In this document: positions 974-48,667 of the stretch, piece by piece
How positions within the stretch are numbered: the stretch's first letter is position 1
Layout: each line of letters starts with the position of its first letter
From: Candidatus Omnitrophota bacterium
GTDB lineage: Bacteria > Omnitrophota > Omnitrophia > Omnitrophales > Aquincolibacteriaceae
Length of the DNA: 64,000 nucleotides
Direction: 5' to 3'
Assembly (NCBI GenBank): GCA_043803685.1
Contig: JAZDJU010000031.1
Location: 64,001 to 128,000, forward strand
The notes under the pieces: model-generated
Database searches by the model: none
What the model saw: only the letters and a program-made list of their open reading frames with translations
Told to the model about the DNA's origin: nothing
Translations under genes and position numbers: made by a program

Positions 974-3900
974 CTAGCGGGACGTAAGATCGTTGATCTT
1001 TTTCTCGAGATCCAGCAAGGTCGCTTCGAAACTTCTGGCGCGAGACTGGCTCTTCGCGTGCTCTCTTTTCTCGTTTTCAAGTCTTTCTTCAAGATCCTTC
1101 TGTAAAGCGATCTTTTCACTCAAGAGAGCTTCCTTCTCACGCAATGTCTTGGTCAAATCCTCCAACGCGCGAGCCTTCTCACCCCCTTCGGCAAAAGCCT
1201 TTCCTTTTTCTTTTTCAAGATCGGAACATTGTGTCCGGAACTGCTGGATCTGGGTCGCGGCAAAAGCCGCGGCTCTTTCGAGATCTTGGATCCTGGAGGA
1301 TGCCACATCGATCTCCCCGCGCATTTTCTTACCTTCCTCGGTCAAACGAGCCCGTTCCCGCTCGGAAGCCGCGATCTCCGCTATCCGTTCTTCGATCTCC
1401 TTATGGGCAATCAGATTTTGCTCCACACGACAGGCGAGATCCTTCTCGATGCGATGCCGTTCTTCTTCCAATCGTTTCTTATCCTCCTCGAAAGAAGCCC
1501 TGTCACTTTCCAGGTTTTTTTCAAGTTCACGAACCCGGGCTTTTAAGGTCTCCATCTCTTTTCCTCGTTCCGCCAGATCTTTTTGGAGACCCGCGCTGAG
1601 ATTCCCCAACGACTTGAGTTCCACGGCCTTCTCTCCGGCATCCTTCAATGCGGCTTGTTTCTCACAGTCCAAGCGCTTGGCATCCTCTTCTAATGTCGCA
1701 AGAGCCGCCCGATCCTTCTCGAGCGCCGCCTCCAACCCACTGACTTTCCCGACCAACTGTTCAACCATTTCTCTTGCTTCACGGAAACCGTCCTTCAACC
1801 GTTCTTCTTCTTTTTCTTTCTCCAATAGTTCCGAGCCTAAGGCTTTCCGGTCGACTGCAGCTTGAGCCTTCTCGACTTCAAGCGCGGCGCGCATTTTTTC
1901 GTATGCGTCCACCGAAGCGCGGTACTTCTCCGTAAGTTCGTCCGCCGCAACGTCCCTCACCTTGATCTCAGCTTCCGCCGCCGTACATTTCGTCTCCAAA
2001 CTCCGGAGATCCTCCCACAGTCGGGCTTCCTCCGAGGTCTTCACCTCCAAAGCCTGCAACAACTCCGACTTCCCTTTCTCTAACGCCTCGATCCGCGAAC
2101 GGTCTTCCGCCGATGTTTCCTCCAACTCGCGAACACGAGTCGACAAACCTTCAGATTCCTCTGTCTTTGATTCCAAGGTCTTTGAAAGATCGAACTTTTC
2201 TTTCTCCAACAACTGGATCTGGGATCGAGTCTCCTCCGCATTTTTTCAAATTGATCGACCCGAGCTCTCAGATCTCCCGATTCTTTCACACGCTCGGCCA
2301 GCTCTTTCTCAAGACCCGCGCTAATCTCGCCTAAAGACTCCAACTCGATGACCTTGTCCCCAACTTCCTTCAATGCCGCTTGTTTCTCACGCGCGAGATT
2401 TCTCGCATTTTCTTCAAATACAAGGAGCGCCACCCTGTTTTTTTTGAGCATTTCCTCAAAGACCTGGGCGTTGACCTTCACTTCTTCCGATTCTTTCGCC
2501 ACCGATGCCAGATCCTTCTCAAGACGGGCCTTCTCGCCCTCCAGCTCCGCACACTTTTTCTCGTAAGCTTCCACCGCCGCGCGGTGCTTCTCCACAAGTT
2601 CGGCCACCGCCGCATCTTTCGCCTGAATCTCAGCTTCCACCGCTACGCGGTGCTTCTCCGCAATTTCGCTCGCCGCCGCAGCATTCTTCCTGATCTCAGC
2701 TTCCGCCGCCACGTGGTTCGCTTCCACCTTCCCAAGCTCTTCACGCAACTGCGCCGCTTCAGCACGCTTCGACTCCAGAGCCTGCGACAACTCCGAATTT
2801 TCTCTCCCTAACACCTGGATCTGAGACCGGTCTCCCTCCGATGTCTTCTCCAACTCTCGAACACGAACCTGCAATTCTTCCAACTCTTTTGCCACCGATG
2901 CCAGATCCTTCTCAAGACGGGCCTTCTCGTCTTCGAGCTCCGCACACTGCTTTTCATAAACTTCCGCACTCTCAAGCTTTTCACGCAGTTGCGCTTCTTC
3001 AGCACGCTTCGATTCAAAGGCCTTGAAAAGATCCGCCTTCTGTTTCTCCAATCCTCCAAGATTCGCTTCCAACTCCTTCACACGCGATTGGATCTCAAAA
3101 AAATCTTCACGCAGCTTCGTCTCTTCCCTCACTTTTCCCGCGAGCTCCTCGTTGAGCGATCGCCGATCCTCCTCAAGACGGGTCTTTTCGACTTCAAGCG
3201 CCGCCACCACTGCCGCTTTTTCCTCGCCGTCCTTCAATGCCAGAATTTTGTCTTGCTCCAAACGTTTCTGATCATCCGCTAAAACAGTCAGCGCCGCCCG
3301 GCTTTCCGCAAGCGTCTCTTCTAATTCACCAAGACGCACCTTGAACTCCTCGGACTCTTTCGTCTTCAAGCCCAGGTCCTTTTCCAGGCGAACTGTCGCA
3401 GTTCTAAGCACCGCCAACTCCGCGGCTTTCCCTTCTCCGTCCTTCAACGCAGCCTGATTCCGGTGCTCCAACCCTTGCACCTCCGACCAAAGCCGCGCTT
3501 CCTCAGCTCGTTTCGTCTCGAGTTCTTTGAAAAGATCTGACTTCTCTTTCTCCAAACCCTGGATCCTCAGTTGGCCGGCCTCGAATGATTCCTCAAATCC
3601 GCGAACCCGTGCTTTAAGATCCTCCGACTCCTTCACCTTAGATCCCAGATCCTTCTCAAGCCGGGCTTTGGCTTCCCCAAGCGCCGCCAATTCCGAAGCC
3701 TTCAATTCGGCGTTCTTCAATGCCGCTTGTTTCTCTTGCTCCAAACATCGCCTATCATCCCCGGAGGCATCCAGAGCCGACCGGGTCTCTTCCAACGTTT
3801 TCTCTAATCCCAGGATCCGCGTCTGCAATGCGTCCGAATCATTGGCCTTTAAAACAAGATCCTTCTCAAGACGAGCCTTGGATTCTTCTAAGGCCGTCAA

Positions 3901-4569
3901 CTGGGTAGTTTTTTCTTCGATCTTCTTGATCTGCGCACGCGCGGCTTCTATTTCGATCTCAAGCTCCGCCATCTTCAGTCCGGCTTTTTCTTCGTCCGCA
4001 CGAAGCCGCTTGATCACTTCAAGAAGCAAGGCGTTCTCTTTCTCCAGAGTTTTGCGTTTATGTTCCTCGGCGGCGCGTGCTCCCACCTTTTCATGGAGGG
4101 CCTCGCGGGTTCCTTCCTGTTGAAATTTCACCTTGAAGGCTTCTACGTGGGCTTTCTTCTCCGCGGCTAGCTCCGCTTCGAGCCGCTCGCTTTTTTTCTG
4201 CAATTCCTCAAGACGCGATTCCCACTGCTTCCTCTCGGAGGCAAAACGATCCATGCCGGAGGGCACCAGATATTCCTCTTTGTTTTCATGGAGAAAATGC
4301 GTCGGAGAGCCAAGCGAATACACCTTCTGAGGAGATACTGTTTGAGAGGGAGTCGTGGTTTTGGGGGATTCCTTCACTTTTCCCAACAGATCCATAAGGT
4401 CCATCAGTTCCATAAGATCGACCTTGGAGGGCGCTCGAGTCGCCTTGCTTCTATCCGCCGAAGAGTCGCCTTGTTTGAAATAATGCTCGGTCAGGGCCTC
4501 CGCAACGAGGGTGGAGAGACGCCCGCTTTTCACCAGCTCATGGATCTGCTCTTCCAAGGAATTTTTCAT
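974..4569 (-). CDS. Very long coiled-coil repeat protein (~1198 aa if joined), split by a frameshift at 2241-2246
   Basis: ORFs 2080..4644 and 974..2212 share the same E/K/L/A repeats. Adding one A to the A6 run gives FEKNAEETRSQIQLLEKEK, which matches the sibling repeats. ATG at 4569 has a GGAGG RBS. Confidence 0.7.
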
Positions 4570-4736
4570 ACCAAAACCTCCGGAAATAAAGAATCCGAAT
4601 CCTGTGAGGAAAACCCGCTTCGAGGGCGCACGCGACGGAACCACCTTCTTCCATCACAGCCTCGATCCGGGAGGAGTTCTATTTTCTTCGCTAAAAAGTA
4701 CCATGTAAATGGATATTTTTCTAGTCCTTCGCAAAT

Positions 4737-4767
4737 AAAAAAGCCATCGGCACCCATTCCCGATGGC
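4737..4767 (-). terminator. Intrinsic terminator after the TPR gene
   Basis: GCCATCGG..CCGATGGC stem followed by a T6 run on the minus strand. Confidence 0.65.
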
Positions 4768-4816
4768 CCTGCTAGATTCGCTCTTCTGTCACCCCAAACC
4801 GGTCGAGATAATCTCG

Positions 4817-4902
4817 CTAGTACTGTTCTCTATTTAATTTTAGGGGTTAACAGTGCTGTACCGCATACCCCTAATTTCAAATGTAATGTGATGCGGTGCT
4901 AG
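4817..4902. repeat. CTAG-flanked double-hairpin miniature element
   Basis: CTAG-tactgtt..aacagtg-CTG-taccgcat..atgcggtg-CTAG. Confidence 0.6.
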
Positions 4903-4908
4903 TGGATG

Positions 4909-6078
4909 CTAGCCCTTTTTCTCGGCCGCATCCAGATAGAGCTTGGCGATAAGGCACTTCTCTTCATATCCATTGATAATGAACTCGATCCTCCGATCGC
5001 GGTCTTCGTCGGTCAAAGCGTCCGGACCCACCGGCTCGTCTCCAATGATCTTGCACACATCGTTGGTCCTCGAAAAGATCGCCCTCGCCCACTCCCCTTC
5101 ACTGCATTTTCCGAGAAGATACAAAATAGTCACGACGTACTGTCCGCCATAGAGCGAGCCGAGGTTATAAAGCACCGTTTTCTGGTACCCCGTAAAATCG
5201 GCCACAATATCCTGAAAAAAACTGACGATCCTTCTCCACTCTTCGCCGGTATACCGGTCCCACGCGGTAAGGGAGAAACCTTTCTCTTCCAGAAACAGCT
5301 TGACCCGTTCCTGCTGGACCTCCTGGTACATGGAAGTAACAGGATACCCCACGGCAGGCTCAAAAACAGGGTCACTACGCAGCCAGTGCGGCAGCTCTTT
5401 GAAAGGATCATTCTCCTCATTGAGGAAATCGACCTTTGAAGAAGCCAGGACATACGCACTGAAGAATTTGGGTTCCAGAACGATCCCATCCTCGATCAAA
5501 AGGTCGTCGCATCCTTCAAAATCACCCACGATCCTGGCCGCTAAGGCTTTTGTCGCTAATTCCAGCGGATTGCCTCGGAGAGTTTTGAGCCGTTCCCCGC
5601 CCGCCTCAATGTAATACCGGCCGTTCTGGCTGACCCATTTCAAAGCGCTGATCGGGATTTTTTTCAAGAGACCTTGCAGGATCATCGCCTGGAGAGCCTT
5701 CTGGCGATTGTCTAATGCGATCCGCATGCGGGGATCGACATGGATCGCGGCATCAAAACATTGAAGCGCTTCCTTGAAATTTTTCCCCATCATCAGCATC
5801 GAACCTTTGTTGACCAGTTCGTGCGTGCGTAAAAAATTACAGTGGAGCGCCTCCTCGTAGCATTCAAAGGCCTTACCAGCATTCCCAAGCCTGTCATAGC
5901 AACGGCCCAGATTGATCCAGGCCTTTTCATTATTACTATGAACCGCCAAAGCTTTTTCATAACACGCCTTGGCTTTTCCCCAAGCTCTGTTCTTGATGAA
6001 CTCAAAGCCGTCCGTCAGGAACATTTCGCATTCTTTACATGGTTCCTCGTGCACGGGGCACCTCCCCATCAAAACCAT
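4909..6078 (-). CDS. TPR protein with a possible ATP12-like C-terminal region
   Basis: N-terminal TPRs (AWINLGRCY..A..CYEEAL). The segment LKTLRGNPLELATKALAARI resembles the ATP12 N-terminal motif. Confidence 0.7.
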   Translation of the reverse strand: MVLMGRCPVHEEPCKECEMFLTDGFEFIKNRAWGKAKACYEKALAVHSNNEKAWINLGRCYDRLGNAGKAFECYEEALHCNFLRTHELVNKGSMLMMGKNFKEALQCFDAAIHVDPRMRIALDNRQKALQAMILQGLLKKIPISALKWVSQNGRYYIEAGGERLKTLRGNPLELATKALAARIVGDFEGCDDLLIEDGIVLEPKFFSAYVLASSKVDFLNEENDPFKELPHWLRSDPVFEPAVGYPVTSMYQEVQQERVKLFLEEKGFSLTAWDRYTGEEWRRIVSFFQDIVADFTGYQKTVLYNLGSLYGGQYVVTILYLLGKCSEGEWARAIFSRTNDVCKIIGDEPVGPDALTDEDRDRRIEFIINGYEEKCLIAKLYLDAAEKKG

Positions 6079-6191
6079 TGCTTACGATGATTGCGCCGTA
6101 CCAATCTTCCTTATAACATTATAGCTCATTTTGAGCAATAATGAGAACGCAACAGCTCATAAGCGATCTTCTATTCGTACAAATTATCGCC

Positions 6192-6782
6192 TCAAGACTT
6201 CGCCGGACCTCCAAACCATAATTCGCTGTACCGGACAAACAGTCCACCCAAAAGAGAAAACGTCTTACCATAGAGCATTGATGCACTTTCTTGAAATACG
6301 GAGAAAACAACAGCCCCAATAATGGTCATAATAAATACAATAGAAAACGTCTGAGCCGCGAGACCGAGTCCTCTCTCGCGTTCGTTAGCCTTATTGTTTG
6401 AAGCCTCGGCCAGTTCCTTCCGATAGAAACGTTCCTCCTCCCCAAGACCTTTCAGAGCCTCCCCAAGTCTTGATCCCACGGGAAAGAACACGGCAAAAAT
6501 GGCCGCGAACAGGACGACCTTTTGCACTCCTTGGTCGTGGAGGGCAGACATCGTCCACCGTGACACAAAAGCCACATAAATGAGATAAACATAGGACTGC
6601 AAAAGAGCCGTAATCGCAACTCCAAAAACGAAGCGGGCTTTACCACACTTCCCCGACCGGTCGGGAGTGATCATCAACTTCCCCGGAACACTCAAAGCGT
6701 CCAGCACGAATGAAGCTATGAATTTCATGACGACGCCTAAAACCCCCAGCGCAACAATGAAACAAAACGTCCTCAAACCCAC
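6192..6782 (-). CDS. Hypothetical membrane protein
   Basis: 196-aa ORF, about 4 hydrophobic segments, GGAGG RBS. Confidence 0.65.
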   Translation of the reverse strand: MGLRTFCFIVALGVLGVVMKFIASFVLDALSVPGKLMITPDRSGKCGKARFVFGVAITALLQSYVYLIYVAFVSRWTMSALHDQGVQKVVLFAAIFAVFFPVGSRLGEALKGLGEEERFYRKELAEASNNKANERERGLGLAAQTFSIVFIMTIIGAVVFSVFQESASMLYGKTFSLLGGLFVRYSELWFGGPAKS

Positions 6783-7018
6783 AATTCCCCTCCTGTTCCA
6801 CTCGTTCTGATCGAAAACCGCATCTCATGGCGACCCTGTGCGACACCTTTCTCCCTACATCCTTCTTACCTCAAACTTCGGCATTCAAGAAAAAAAACAT
6901 TACCTTATTCGTCACTTTGCTTGTGAGAAGCCCCGTCGATCCAGGACAAGAAAGCAAATTCTAAGAACCGGCCCGGGGGTGATAACATGTGTCGCTTTAC
7001 TTCAAAATGCGGGACGTA

Positions 7019-7264
7019 ATAGCGGCTCGCAACAAGAAGGGATCTGAGTAACCGCTAGCACCATTGCAAGTTTGATCTTACCGGTGAACGGTGCTAGTCC
7101 CAATTCTTATCAATTTTAACGAAGTGGTCCCAATACCAATCAATCGAAGCACAGCTGAGATTGGGGCCATCCAAGTCGCCATTAATGAAATGAAAATGAA
7201 GACTTGGGTGGAAATTGGGGCAAGCCTTGTCGCCCTTTAATAAAAAAATGCAAGACAAGGCTAG
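7019..7264. mobile_element. Tandem and nested double-hairpin miniature elements (7019-7097; 7094-7264 containing insert 7124-7211)
   Basis: 7094-7264 matches the reverse complement of 48581-48667 apart from a few substitutions and an 84-bp insert flanked by GTGG direct repeats. Confidence 0.7.
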
Positions 7265-7517
7265 AAGCGGTTTCATAAGTATGCGTAAACCTATAAGCAG
7301 TATGTCATTCCCGCATGCTTCTAGCGGGAATCCAGCTCTGGTATGTATTCTGGATCCCCGCACTGAACAACCTATAACGCATTCAAGGAAGTTTAGTGCT
7401 GCACTTGTTCTCATTCAAAATTTTATTGAAAACAAGCGCGATTAATACATTCGGGGATGACAATCTGGAGAATGATGCCACAAAAGCATTTAGAGAGACT
7501 TATGAAACAGCTTCTAG
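7261..7517. mobile_element. MITE with ~20-bp terminal inverted repeats ending in CTAG; contains a REP-like palindrome that is itself interrupted
   Basis: CTAGAAGCGGTTTCATAAGT (7261-7280) vs ACTTATGAAACAGCTTCTAG (7498-7517), 19/20 inverted match. Confidence 0.7.
7304..7461. repeat. GTCATTCCCG..GGGAATCCA..TGGATCCCCG..CGGGGATGAC REP/RPE-like palindrome, interrupted at 7361-7440
   Basis: Same architecture as the intact copy at 53424-53496. Confidence 0.7.
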
Positions 7518-8698
7518 CGATCTTGAGCGACATTCCTGGGAAGAATGAAAATGAAATGAGAGCCTTTGCCGGGTTCGCTCTCCACCCATATTTTCCCCCG
7601 GTGAAGCTCGACGATCTCCTTGGCGATGGGAAGACCGAGCCCTGTGCCTTCCTGTTTTTCGGCCGTGATGCGCTCGAACTTATCAAAGACTTTCGTCAAA
7701 AACGCCTTCGGGATGCCGGGCCCCGTATCCGCGATCTCGAAACGGACCTCTTCCCGGTTACCTTCAAGCTTGACCGTGAGCGTTCCGCCGGAAGGCGTAT
7801 ACTTGATGGCGTTATTCAGGAGGTTGATAATCACTTCGCTGATCCTGTCCCGGTCCACCCGGATCGCTCCCAAGTCTGGTGCCATTTCCAGTTTGAAGGT
7901 CAGCCCTTTTTTTGAGATCTGGCCCCGGTAAGAAACCATTATTTCGTCGACGAAAGGAGCGACGGCGAACATCTCTTTTTGAAGCTGCATATGCCCCGCT
8001 TCCAGTTTGGCGAGACTCAAAAGGTCCCCGAGCAGCCGGATGAGGCGGTCCGCGGTCCGCTCCCCCGCCGAGAGGCACCGTTTCTGCTCCTCATTGATCT
8101 CCCCAACCGTACCGCTGTGGATGATATCGAACGATTCTTTGATGATCGAAAGAGGTCCCCGGATCTCGTGCGAAACGTTGGCCACAAAAGACTTCATCTG
8201 TTCGTTCATCTTCTTCACGGTCTCTGAGGCCTTCCGTAACGACTCTTCAGTTTTTTTGTGAGCGGCGATCTCCAACGCCAGGCGAGCATTGGTCTCCGAA
8301 AGTTCGGCGGTCCTAAGTTCCACTTTCTTTTCCAATTCCCTGCCCGCCACTTCGAGCAGATCCCCCCTCTTTTTGCTCTCCTCGCTCAGGGTGCTTATCA
8401 AAAACCCGATGATGAAGAACATCGCGACACGGACTCCTTCGCCCATGACCTGGGAAAAATTCGAGTCGACGAAGAAATGGATGCCCAGCAACTGTACCGC
8501 AAGAAAGAGAACGACCCAGAAAACCTTCCGCTCCCACCACACGGCAGCAAGAATGATCGGAACATAGAACAGGTGGGTATAAACAACTTCCGTGCGAAGG
8601 ATCAAATGGAAATAATAGATGCTTGCGGAGGCCGTCAGGAAAAGAACCGCGATGACAACATTCTTGTAGGGTGCCACTACGACGTTCGTTTTTTTCAT
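7514..8698 (-). CDS. Membrane sensor histidine kinase
   Basis: HisKA VSHEIRGPL, N-box NLLNNAIKY, G-boxes DTGPGI and GTGLGL, N-terminal TMs; start taken at MKKTN. Confidence 0.92.
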   Translation of the reverse strand: MKKTNVVVAPYKNVVIAVLFLTASASIYYFHLILRTEVVYTHLFYVPIILAAVWWERKVFWVVLFLAVQLLGIHFFVDSNFSQVMGEGVRVAMFFIIGFLISTLSEESKKRGDLLEVAGRELEKKVELRTAELSETNARLALEIAAHKKTEESLRKASETVKKMNEQMKSFVANVSHEIRGPLSIIKESFDIIHSGTVGEINEEQKRCLSAGERTADRLIRLLGDLLSLAKLEAGHMQLQKEMFAVAPFVDEIMVSYRGQISKKGLTFKLEMAPDLGAIRVDRDRISEVIINLLNNAIKYTPSGGTLTVKLEGNREEVRFEIADTGPGIPKAFLTKVFDKFERITAEKQEGTGLGLPIAKEIVELHRGKIWVESEPGKGSHFIFILPRNVAQDR

Positions 8699-8858
8699 TC
8701 TGAAATACCTATTCTCATCTTCACGATCCCAGAACAGCAATGCGCTGATTGTACATCTTTCGACCGGACTAACAAAGAAGAACTGTCGCCGCAATATCGC
8801 CGGTGATCCCGAATGGGATATAAATTCATTTCTCAACGAACATAAGAACAAACTTGCT

Positions 8859-9098
8859 CTACGAGTTCCTTGATTCCGGCTCCGAACGTTCTAACTTCTC
8901 CAGATTCGGGTTCGCCGACTGAAAGGCCGGGGCTTGCTCCGTGGAATTTTCGGGGGAAGTCATCGCCTTTTCCGCTCTCCGTGCCGCGATCGCTTTTCGC
9001 GCAACCCGGATCCCGAAGATGGCATACGCCGGAGGCGCCTCAAGAAAAAATGTTCCCGCCACAAGTCCGACCATCATCCATTTCAATGTCCTCGGCAT
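8859..9098 (-). CDS. Small secreted hypothetical protein
   Basis: Signal peptide ending AYA, GAGG RBS. Confidence 0.6.
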   Translation of the reverse strand: MPRTLKWMMVGLVAGTFFLEAPPAYAIFGIRVARKAIAARRAEKAMTSPENSTEQAPAFQSANPNLEKLERSEPESRNS

Positions 9099-48580: not shown

Positions 48581-48667
48581 CTAGCCTTGTCTTACATTCT
48601 TTTCTTGAATGGCGACAAGGCTTGCCCCAATTTCAACTTCGTTAAAATTGATAAGAATTGGGACTAG
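48581..48667. mobile_element. Intact 87-bp CTAG-flanked double-hairpin element
   Basis: Near-identical reverse complement of 7094-7264 without its insert. Confidence 0.7.

Follow-up and report, generated by a model that had tools for sequence, protein, structure and literature searches.

A family of about 85-nt two-hairpin mobile units in Candidatus Omnitrophota with covarying linker and flanking words

We analysed the hairpin repeats within a 64,000-nucleotide stretch of a Candidatus Omnitrophota genome (G000:C31:64001-128000, hereafter the window; G000, the genome under study, has 2.89 Mb in 133 contigs with 52% G+C). The repeats are short mobile units, each consisting of two different hairpins in the same orientation, and not of an inverted doublet of one repetitive extragenic palindrome (REP). 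Between species whole units, and once a whole four-hairpin array, have been gained or lost, the empty site keeping a single word of 3-4 nt, and the linker between the two hairpins covaries with the words that flank the unit. We propose, at about an even chance of being right, that the units are transposons of the IS200/IS605 kind (peel-and-paste, with hairpin-defined ends) that move as single-strand DNA, are non-autonomous and have been reduced to two hairpins.

The relatives compared (G004, G005, G007 and others) are metagenome-assembled genomes (MAGs) of Candidatus Omnitrophota. The genus panel consists of 20 genomes, and a wider sample of 81 genomes of the order. Folding was predicted with DNA parameters, and a z-score was obtained for each copy.

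Anatomy and distribution of the two-hairpin units

The copies within the window, and the REP copies next to one of them, are as follows.

4817..4902, plus strand: two-hairpin unit of the CTAG/CTG family (target-side CTAG 4817-4820; hairpin 4821-4855; linker CTG 4856-4858; hairpin 4859-4898; 3' CTAG 4899-4902)
7019..7097, minus strand: degenerate two-hairpin unit (in minus-strand reading, an ACCGTT-type hairpin, then a GCGGTT..AGCCGC hairpin)
7094..7264, plus strand: four-hairpin composite (host with CTAG, TCCCAAT..interrupted..ATTGGGG 7214-7220, linker CAAG 7221-7224, hairpin 7225-7260, CTAG 7261-7264)
7124..7211, plus strand: nested unit of the NTGG/CCAT type (5' GTGG 7124-7127; hairpin A 7128-7166; linker CCAT 7167-7170; hairpin B 7171-7207; 3' GTGG 7208-7211)
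7304..7333, minus strand: uninterrupted REP copy, GGATTCCCG ctagaagcatg CGGGAATGAC (minus-strand reading)
7352..7461, plus strand: host REP carrying the 7361-7440 insert, GGATCCCCG .. attaatacatt CGGGGATGAC; it and the intact REP at 7304-7333 are an inverted pair
7361..7440, plus strand: two-hairpin unit, CACTGAAC type, inserted next to the REP's 5' arm, CCCCG, immediately after it (z -3.3)
48581..48667, minus strand: uninterrupted unit of the NTAG/CAA type (CTAG, TCCCAAT..ATTGGGG, CAAG, CCTTGTC..GACAAGG, CTAG)

The first-pass annotation of this DNA had listed six copies of one family with these layouts, and all six were found again at the same positions. The two-hairpin fold was confirmed for five of them (z -2.3 to -5.9), while the sixth, 7019-7097, is a weak, degenerate member, which folds poorly (z -1.1 and -1.3), gives in blast just short matches to ACCGTT-type hairpins and has its CTAG at 7094-7097 in common with the next unit. 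The unit 4817-4902 reads CTAG / TACTGTT-21-AACAGTG / CTG / TACCGCAT-24-ATGCGGTG / CTAG and folds on the plus strand with -10.1 kcal (z -2.3); it has ten sister two-hairpin units in G000, in which flank and linker covary. For 48581-48667, z is -5.9 on both strands, the minus strand being 2.2 kcal more stable.

The composite 7094-7264 consists of a host unit with the parts CTAG, TCCCAAT..ATTGGGG, CAAG, CCTTGTC..GACAAGG and CTAG, and of a second unit (7124-7211) nested in the loop of its first hairpin; z of the composite is -5.4. The nested unit reads GTGG / TCCCAAT-25-ATTGGGG / CCAT / CCAAGTC-23-GACTTGG / GTGG, and in the predicted fold its linker, hairpin B and 3' word make a stem of 11 bp. The copy-inside-copy arrangement seen at first reading was thus correct, with the amendment that it is no one-off insertion. 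Four more nested composites of the same design, with differing second hairpins, are present in G000. The full 171-nt composite is matched end to end, at 78-86% identity, in several genomes of the genus, and the nested design is therefore a recurrent architecture and not a unique event.

Using the window copies as seeds, iterative blastn was run to convergence over G000, and the family was found to occupy 133 loci and 12,700 bases. By length, 24 loci are below 60 bp (about one hairpin), 81 are of 60-110 bp (about two hairpins, the commonest form), 8 of 111-150 bp (intermediate), 14 of 151-200 bp (about four hairpins) and 6 of 201-300 bp (about six hairpins). The module is a stem of about 7-9 bp with an AT-rich loop of about 20 nt, and words of 3-4 nt separate the modules. 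The arrays are nested like an onion: the six-hairpin form contains the four-hairpin form, which in turn contains a two-hairpin form of the 4817 type, each added pair of hairpins sitting at the linker of the pair outside it. Of all loci, 99 lie mostly outside crude calls of open reading frames (ORFs), which span 90% of G000. No unit or array is longer than 281 bp and none of the 133 loci contains an ORF, in agreement with the non-autonomous nature assumed at the outset. The long version with an ORF inside, which had been suggested as a thing to look for, was found neither among these loci nor among 30 loci of the genus that carry Y1-domain genes.

The common hairpin TCCCAAT-N20-30-ATTGGGG occurs in 11-77 copies in 19 of the 20 genus genomes, as against 0-1 per genome for the control, the same pattern read backwards, and we take the family as real. 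In the 81-genome sample, 13 of the 14 genus members have it in abundance, whereas other genera of the family have 0-9 copies and the remaining genomes 0-2. Between species the units are conserved at 78-91%, more than a neighbouring gene (69-74%). An Rfam search of window positions 4500-7700 gave no match at E <= 1, and a de novo search for adjacent hairpins was too noisy, since real and shuffled genomes differed only about 1.4-fold.

The stems are conserved in shape and not in sequence. At positions 3-7 of the hairpin B stem, two to three types of Watson-Crick pair are found at each position, with 95-100% pairing. A T.G wobble closes the first hairpin at its foot in 40 of 44 cases in G000 and in 175 of 182 in the relatives, and C:G or T:A almost never takes its place; this count supports the idea that G.T pairs favour the folding of one strand. 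The strand that bears the wobble is the more stable in 88 of 110 units, a figure partly built into the way the units were picked. When the unit is folded as a closed single strand, the linker pairs with the 3' word, with at least 3 pairs in 92 of 110 units, and an excised circle would then be a continuous dumbbell.

Within its loop the common hairpin carries a second, inner mini-hairpin of the form TTTC-NNN-(3 nt)-N'N'N'-GAAA, for example at window positions 7098-7123 with 7212-7220 and at 48623-48663. Its top three pairs vary by compensatory change (AAC/GTT, CGC/GCG, CAC/GTG, AGA/TCT, ATC/GAT), and its 3' arm supplies the GCGG or GTGG word where other units nest.

In the sister genome G015 (many contigs), dozens of near-identical units are present, and many of them are at the ends of contigs. 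The picture is that of a recent burst, although G015 has no Y1 match. These units fall into two subfamilies by a matched change, linker CAAC with 3' GTAG and linker CAAT with 3' ATAG, and many were inserted after TTAG in the loop of an ACCGTT-type hairpin.

Linker, flanking words and empty sites

Units starting with the common hairpin were parsed into X (4 nt before the unit), Y (4 nt between the hairpins, the linker) and Z (4 nt after the second hairpin). A total of 177 units were obtained from at least five genomes, 41 in G000, 48 in loci of other genomes, 21 in G015, 37 in G017 and 30 in G011. The first three bases of the linker predict the last three bases of X, as listed below.

Linker CAA: 5' word TAG in 58 of 67 units
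Linker CCG: 5' word CGG in 29 of 32 units
Linker CCA: 5' word TGG in 9 of 10 units
Linker CTG: 5' word CAG, CTG or CGG in 12, 10 and 6 of 33 units
Linker CAG: 5' word CAG or TAG in 12 and 7 of 25 units

The outer positions of linker and X pair in 93-94% of the units. At the central position C faces G (42 units), A faces A (83 units) and T faces A, T or G (16, 12 and 6 units). Altogether 399 paired positions were observed, against 346.8 +/- 5.0 (maximum 366) when X was shuffled among the units in 5000 shuffles, a figure that is not a probability, the copies being kin. Taken by themselves, the 67 units of G017 and G011, an independent pair of genomes fetched afterwards, gave the same rule.

The same covariation is seen in the CTAG family of G000, of which 11 two-hairpin units are known, each with different outer flanks. 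Flank, linker and flank are CTAG/CTG/CTAG in three units, TTAG/CTA/TTAG in two, CTAA/TTG/CTAA in two and CTGG/CCG/CTGG in one, and three have mixed words. For a genome of 52% G+C, G000 has about 6-fold too few CTAG (1,774 occurrences) and about 3-fold too many GATC (32,714 occurrences); a visible fraction of the CTAGs are borders of two-hairpin units.

The two flanking words differ in their relation to the linker. In 96% of the units the first base of Z is paired with the linker's last base, T:A, C:G, T:G and G:C all being seen; for the first base of X the figure is 51%, which is about chance. Every position of Z, the word at the 3' end, is paired with the linker, and Z is predicted to lengthen hairpin B to about 11 bp. 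The trinucleotides of X and Z are unequal in 62 of 177 units. For L116 and L168, where X differs from Z and the empty site is conserved, the empty site is X. The difference in pairing, the identity of the empty site and the units with unequal words together indicate that Z belongs to the element and X to the target DNA. In the young burst of G015, one unit has the words CTGG..ATAG and another CTAA..ATAG. Judging from these sequences, the unit appears to insert 3' of X without a true duplication of the target; for the CTAG family a 4-bp duplication, and for some subfamilies a 3-bp duplication, is also compatible with the data. In the first-pass annotation the linker had been matched to two equivalent flanks. 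The covariation holds for the 177 units and the CTAG family, but the two flanks are not equivalent, only the 3' word being part of the element.

Two alternatives bear directly on the flanking words. As the first, the units might be ordinary MITEs (miniature transposable elements with inverted repeats), moved by a DDE transposase with a target-site duplication of 3-4 bp. Many copies do have the same word on both sides (CTAG..CTAG, CTAA..CTAA, TTAG..TTAG), and IS630 targets CTAG. The units, however, lack terminal inverted repeats beyond 2-3 bases, and their stems change by compensatory substitution. The first base is free in X and fixed by the linker in Z, and the unequal words of the 62 units and the internal match between linker and target would be left unexplained by duplication. 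We therefore regard ordinary MITEs as very unlikely.

As the second, a tyrosine recombinase might act on a folded strand, in the manner of integron attC or CTX-like sites: the circle would carry a core of 3-4 nt and integrate at the same core, which would be left on both sides. The X and Z trinucleotides are identical in 115 of 177 units, recognition by structure would leave the stem sequence free, and the pairing of linker and 3' word in the circularised strand (at least 3 pairs in 92 of 110 units) would give a symmetric dumbbell substrate. A simple rule of identical cores is contradicted by the CTG-linker class, in which X is most often CAG, the complement of the linker, while the unit's own Z is CTG. 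Eight units of the form CAG..CTG..CTG have an X that is the exact complement of the linker and a Z that is not, some of them with unique flanks. No recombinase gene is linked to any copy, and we consider the model quite unlikely. The likeness to attC and the folded attP of CTX phage would lie in a folded single strand recognised by shape and a short fixed crossover word; in contrast, the units have no GTTRRRY core and no linked integrase, and they are dispersed and nested instead of arrayed at one platform.

Mobility of the units was examined on 42 hairpin-bearing stretches of the sister species G005 in comparison with G000, which gave 18 pairs of element and flank with colinear flanks. The junction was clean in seven cases and approximate in four (L151, L154, L167 and L105); in six pairs, L115, L153, L049, L104 and L121 among them, divergence was too great for the break to be located, and these were left out of the count. 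In one case (L108) the alignment continues through the unit, indicating a copy common to both species. The filled and empty sites read as follows.

L107: G005 filled, ATAG[unit..ATAG]; G000 empty, ATAG
L116: G005 filled, CTGG[..CCAT..ATGG]; G000 empty, CTGG
L168: G005 filled, TTAG[four-hairpin array..ATAG]; G000 empty, TTAG
L120: G005 filled, TTAG[..ATAG]; G000 empty, TTAA
L113: G005 filled, ATAG[..ATAG]; G000 empty, TCAG
L068: G005 filled, GCGG[..CCGT..ACGG]; G000 empty, GCCA
L114: G005 filled, GCGG[..]GCGG; G000 empty, GTGG

Two more loci were compared with three species (G004, G005 and G007): unit 4817-4902 of the window is absent from the syntenic intergenic region of all three, and an 84-nt unit located 45 bp upstream of a RAYT-like gene (C106:35521; RAYT, REP-associated tyrosine transposase) is absent from their alignable orthologous sites. 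The empty sites in close relatives that had been suggested as a check were thus detected. A further indication comes from the REP family GGATYCCCG - loop of 6-18 nt - CGGGRATGAC, which occurs at 32 places in G000, 25 of them short and seven carrying an insert of the 7361 type. In the window this insert is placed between the 5' arm and the loop of the host REP, GGATCCCCG..CGGGGATGAC, and all seven interrupted copies, including REPs of different loop types, are hit at the same point. The mobility claimed earlier from an uninterrupted sister copy and from the REP insertion is thereby borne out. The REP arm word GGRATGAC has 228 occurrences on both strands of G000. Among public sequencing runs, none was listed that contains window positions 3000-9000.

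At L068 (1497-1594, G005:C4) the 84-nt unit lies within an ORF of 630 aa (1047-2939) with the frame intact, and it is absent from the orthologous gene in G000 (C37 near 201,377). This is therefore an in-frame insertion of the kind known from Rickettsia palindromic elements (RPE). The likeness to RPE is a hairpin repeat sitting in frame in a protein gene; unlike in RPE, most units are intergenic, and anatomy and target rule differ.

Comparison with IS608 and proposed mechanism

IS608 offers the nearest model at the level of sequence. In passages of PMC3201880, IS608 is described as having hairpins at both ends, with cleavage of the top strand and a single-strand circle; insertion takes place 3' of a tetranucleotide outside the element, the right word is part of it, and no DNA is gained or lost. 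The target and cleavage words are read by pairing with 4-nt guides beside the hairpins, and statements in PMC3201880 and PMC5934647 indicate that changing the guide of an IS200/IS605 element changes its target. The units resemble IS200/IS605 elements (IS608) and their gene-less derivatives, the palindrome-associated transposable elements, in the hairpins at both ends, a probably single active strand, the landing 3' of an outside word, the right word within the element and the lack of duplication. As in IS200/IS605 elements, sub-terminal hairpins stand at both ends and terminal inverted repeats are absent; the unit is taken up by its two hairpins, whose stems covary freely. Differing from these elements, the whole unit is about 85 bp, with a single central linker in place of two guides that each stand 5' of a hairpin. 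The words also abut the feet of the hairpins and lengthen the stems, at least four to five natural specificities occur in one family, self-insertion is habitual, and no TnpA with matching ends was found.

On the strand proposed as active, a unit reads hairpin A, a linker of 3-4 nt, hairpin B and the 3' word, hairpin A opening with a near-invariant T in a T.G wobble. The unit would be excised, probably as a single strand and by a trans-acting HUH enzyme (Y1/RAYT-like), and re-inserted immediately 3' of a short target word, which is not expected to be duplicated. In the excised strand the linker would pair with its own 3' word, lengthening hairpin B to about 11 bp, and once a target stands 5' of hairpin A the same linker may pair with the target word as well. 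By its position 5' of hairpin B the linker takes the place of the right guide, and it would face the target word across hairpin A. One central linker might in this way be the guide for both cleavage sites and set the target, the combinations being CAA with NTAG, CCG with NCGG, CCA with NTGG, CTG with CAG, CGG or CTAG, and TTG with CTAA. Choice of the target through base pairing of the linker is suggested by the covariation.

The nesting is accounted for by the words within the units. Target words of other subfamilies are present in CWG-type linkers and also in the first hairpin's loop (..GCGG/AA, ..GTGG/AA), and hence new copies land inside old ones, forming arrays of four and six hairpins.

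Candidate enzymes, alternatives and meaning

Y1/RAYT genes were found in 15 of the 20 genus genomes. G000 has three ORFs with a Y1 domain (on C72, C16 and C106), for which the best NCBIfam match is NF047646, REP-associated tyrosine transposase, with 52-57 bits and below the cut-off of 80 bits. The RAYT-like proteins of C72 (67164-67847) and C16 (13869-14381) keep the HUH motif and the Tyr, while that of C106 has RIH in place of HUH and Phe for the catalytic Tyr. The C72 gene is bracketed by an unrelated perfect inverted repeat of 25 bp (GAAAGGGGTCACACC..; G000:C72:67082-67857, L001) and the C16 gene is flanked by an unrelated direct repeat, whereas the C106 gene has the one upstream unit that is absent from the three orthologous loci. 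No element is present within the locus at two of the three RAYT loci of G000 and at 21 of 26 in the relatives, and none of the genes is bracketed. Near the 30 Y1 loci of the genus, units are no more frequent than their density predicts.

Some observations on these genes may be added. The core of the C72 repeat recurs once as an inverted pair, about 50 bp apart, on C116:13301-13363, possibly a miniature derivative of the C72 element. The C106 gene (G000:C106:35521-36183; L002 1399-2064) is kept in synteny at 82-84% identity in G004, G005 and G007, and in three of these four species the reading frame continues through the following ORF (about 429 aa). A search of PDB sequences with the C106 protein gave no match. 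This protein may be a domesticated, non-catalytic hairpin-binding protein.

Among the 20 genus genomes, Y1 is present in 15, reverse transcriptase in 7 (including three without Y1), IS110 DEDD in 4 and the TnpB domain in 1, and none of the four fits as cognate enzyme with a hairpin that occurs in 19 of 20. Tiny GIY-YIG genes were also tried as full-length partner and rejected: the four small GIY-YIG genes of G000 adjoin tRNA genes or fragments, a unit is found within 200 bp of only one of them, and units bracket none. One of these ORFs, of 78 aa (G000:C40:49933-50142; L173 1501-1737), has the intact tRNA on one side and a duplicated 5' half of a tRNA gene on the other, and two others (L172 and L174) adjoin tRNA genes or repeated tRNA ends. 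The small GIY-YIG ORFs thus look like a mobile nuclease element that targets tRNA and has no relation to the two-hairpin units.

Several points weigh against single-strand transposons of the IS200/IS605 kind. With regard to the enzyme, neither an autonomous copy nor a cognate enzyme was found, and no full-length Y1 TnpA element with matching ends is present among the 30 Y1 loci. A bona fide IS200/IS605 TnpA scores in only two of the 20 genus genomes; the inactive-looking C106 type is the sole Y1 match in G004, G005 and G007; and none of the three RAYT-like genes of G000 is flanked by the hairpins. Three genomes (G031, G015 and G006) have no Y1 match yet carry 23-77 copies, the apparent recent burst of G015 included, while G013 lacks both the hairpins and a Y1 match. 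All of these relatives are incomplete MAGs, the last four being 69-97% complete. With regard to the guide, the pairing is not purely Watson-Crick, A standing opposite A at the centre in the CAA/TAG and CAG/CAG classes (83 of 177 units), and linker CAG almost never adjoins CTG (1 of 25 units). The copies are interrelated, so that the permutation test overstates their independence. Both guides of IS608 are 5' of hairpins, whereas in the units hairpin A follows directly on the left word and the sole candidate for a guide stands 3' of that hairpin, the right end alone being IS608-like. Finally, no bias of orientation with GC skew or gene strand was detected (n = 40 loci), which in a fragmented assembly counts neither for nor against.

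The presence of RAYT-like genes raises the question of whether the units are REP or BIME (bacterial interspersed mosaic element) elements proper, spread by a domesticated RAYT (TnpA-REP), with the word 5' of the hairpin acting as the GTAG tag. Like REP, BIME and REPIN, the units are high-copy intergenic palindromes, hairpin-based and arranged in mosaics, that persist over the genus and are better conserved than neighbouring genes, with a tetranucleotide at the foot of the hairpin; a passage in PMC8266576 states that the tetranucleotide 5' of a REP hairpin can guide the cleavage site. RAYT-like genes with the 52-57-bit matches to NF047646 are widespread in the genus, and G013, the only genome without the hairpins, is also without a Y1 match. 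The fixed tag of REP, GTAG or CGTC, is nevertheless missing: NTAG, NCGG, NTGG and NCWG all occur, and it is the target that supplies the 5' word. Instead of inverted REP doublets, the units have two unlike hairpins in tandem, both in one orientation; they show clean gain and loss beside a linker-matched word, and the RAYT genes are neither flanked nor bracketed by the hairpins. In addition, three element-rich genomes are without Y1 match and three others have the inactive-looking one only. REP elements proper are on this evidence unlikely.

A host function as structured RNA or DNA (terminator, mRNA stabiliser or protein-binding site), or copying of an RNA by reverse transcriptase, would agree with the wobbles, as G.T corresponds to G.U in RNA as well, and with the reverse-transcriptase genes of 7 genomes, three of them without Y1. 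Against this, Rfam gave nothing at E <= 1 for window positions 4500-7700, sites are present or absent between species, and reverse transcriptase is absent from 13 of the 20 genomes. The orientation of the units to the neighbouring genes is mixed (13 sense, 10 antisense, 12 divergent and 3 convergent), with few copies between convergent genes. This mixed orientation and the unit inside the 630-aa ORF of G005 argue against a dedicated RNA role. Such a function is hardly probable, and an RNA intermediate is not favoured.

The closest kinds are gene-less elements derived from IS200/IS605 and the REP/BIME/REPIN group. The REP-RAYT hallmarks that were examined (a fixed tag, inverted doublets and a RAYT gene with its REPs on both sides) are missing and a cognate TnpA is wanting, while the behaviour at the level of sequence appears IS200/IS605-like.

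A more specific version of the single-strand transposon can be put forward tentatively, as a possibility that we rate as doubtful. The family of about 85 nt would have its target programmed by one linker of 3-4 nt, pairing both with its own 3' end and with the incoming target; the circle would be a dumbbell; the specificities would have diversified by co-mutation of linker and 3' word; and the mover would be an enzyme unlike classical TnpA, possibly host-encoded or a new HUH-like protein. If this is true, the units would represent a DNA-insertion system that can be retargeted by nature, and they would give the first worked example of how guides evolve in elements of this kind.

New in this analysis are the linker-target rule, the finding that the flanking words have a polarity, and the occurrence of several natural specificities. 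A full-text literature search gave no paper joining Omnitrophota to extragenic palindromes, and a broader search (REP, REPIN, MITE, IS200) gave, among the 15 top matches listed, general REP papers only. The subfamilies with matched linker, 3' end and landing word (TAG, CGG, TGG, CAG and TAA) provide a comparative handle on the change of specificity in single-strand transposons. Targeting set by the guide was demonstrated for IS608 by engineering; here its natural counterpart has apparently been run many times. The family also explains the growth of multi-hairpin mosaics by self-targeted nesting. The genomes of Omnitrophota are marked as carrying an active gene-less mobile family, and the question to be asked in searching them is which protein moves a dumbbell of 85 nt. 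For annotation, the finding is a warning that many of the 'structured leaders' and hairpin arrays in these genomes are insertions and not regulators.

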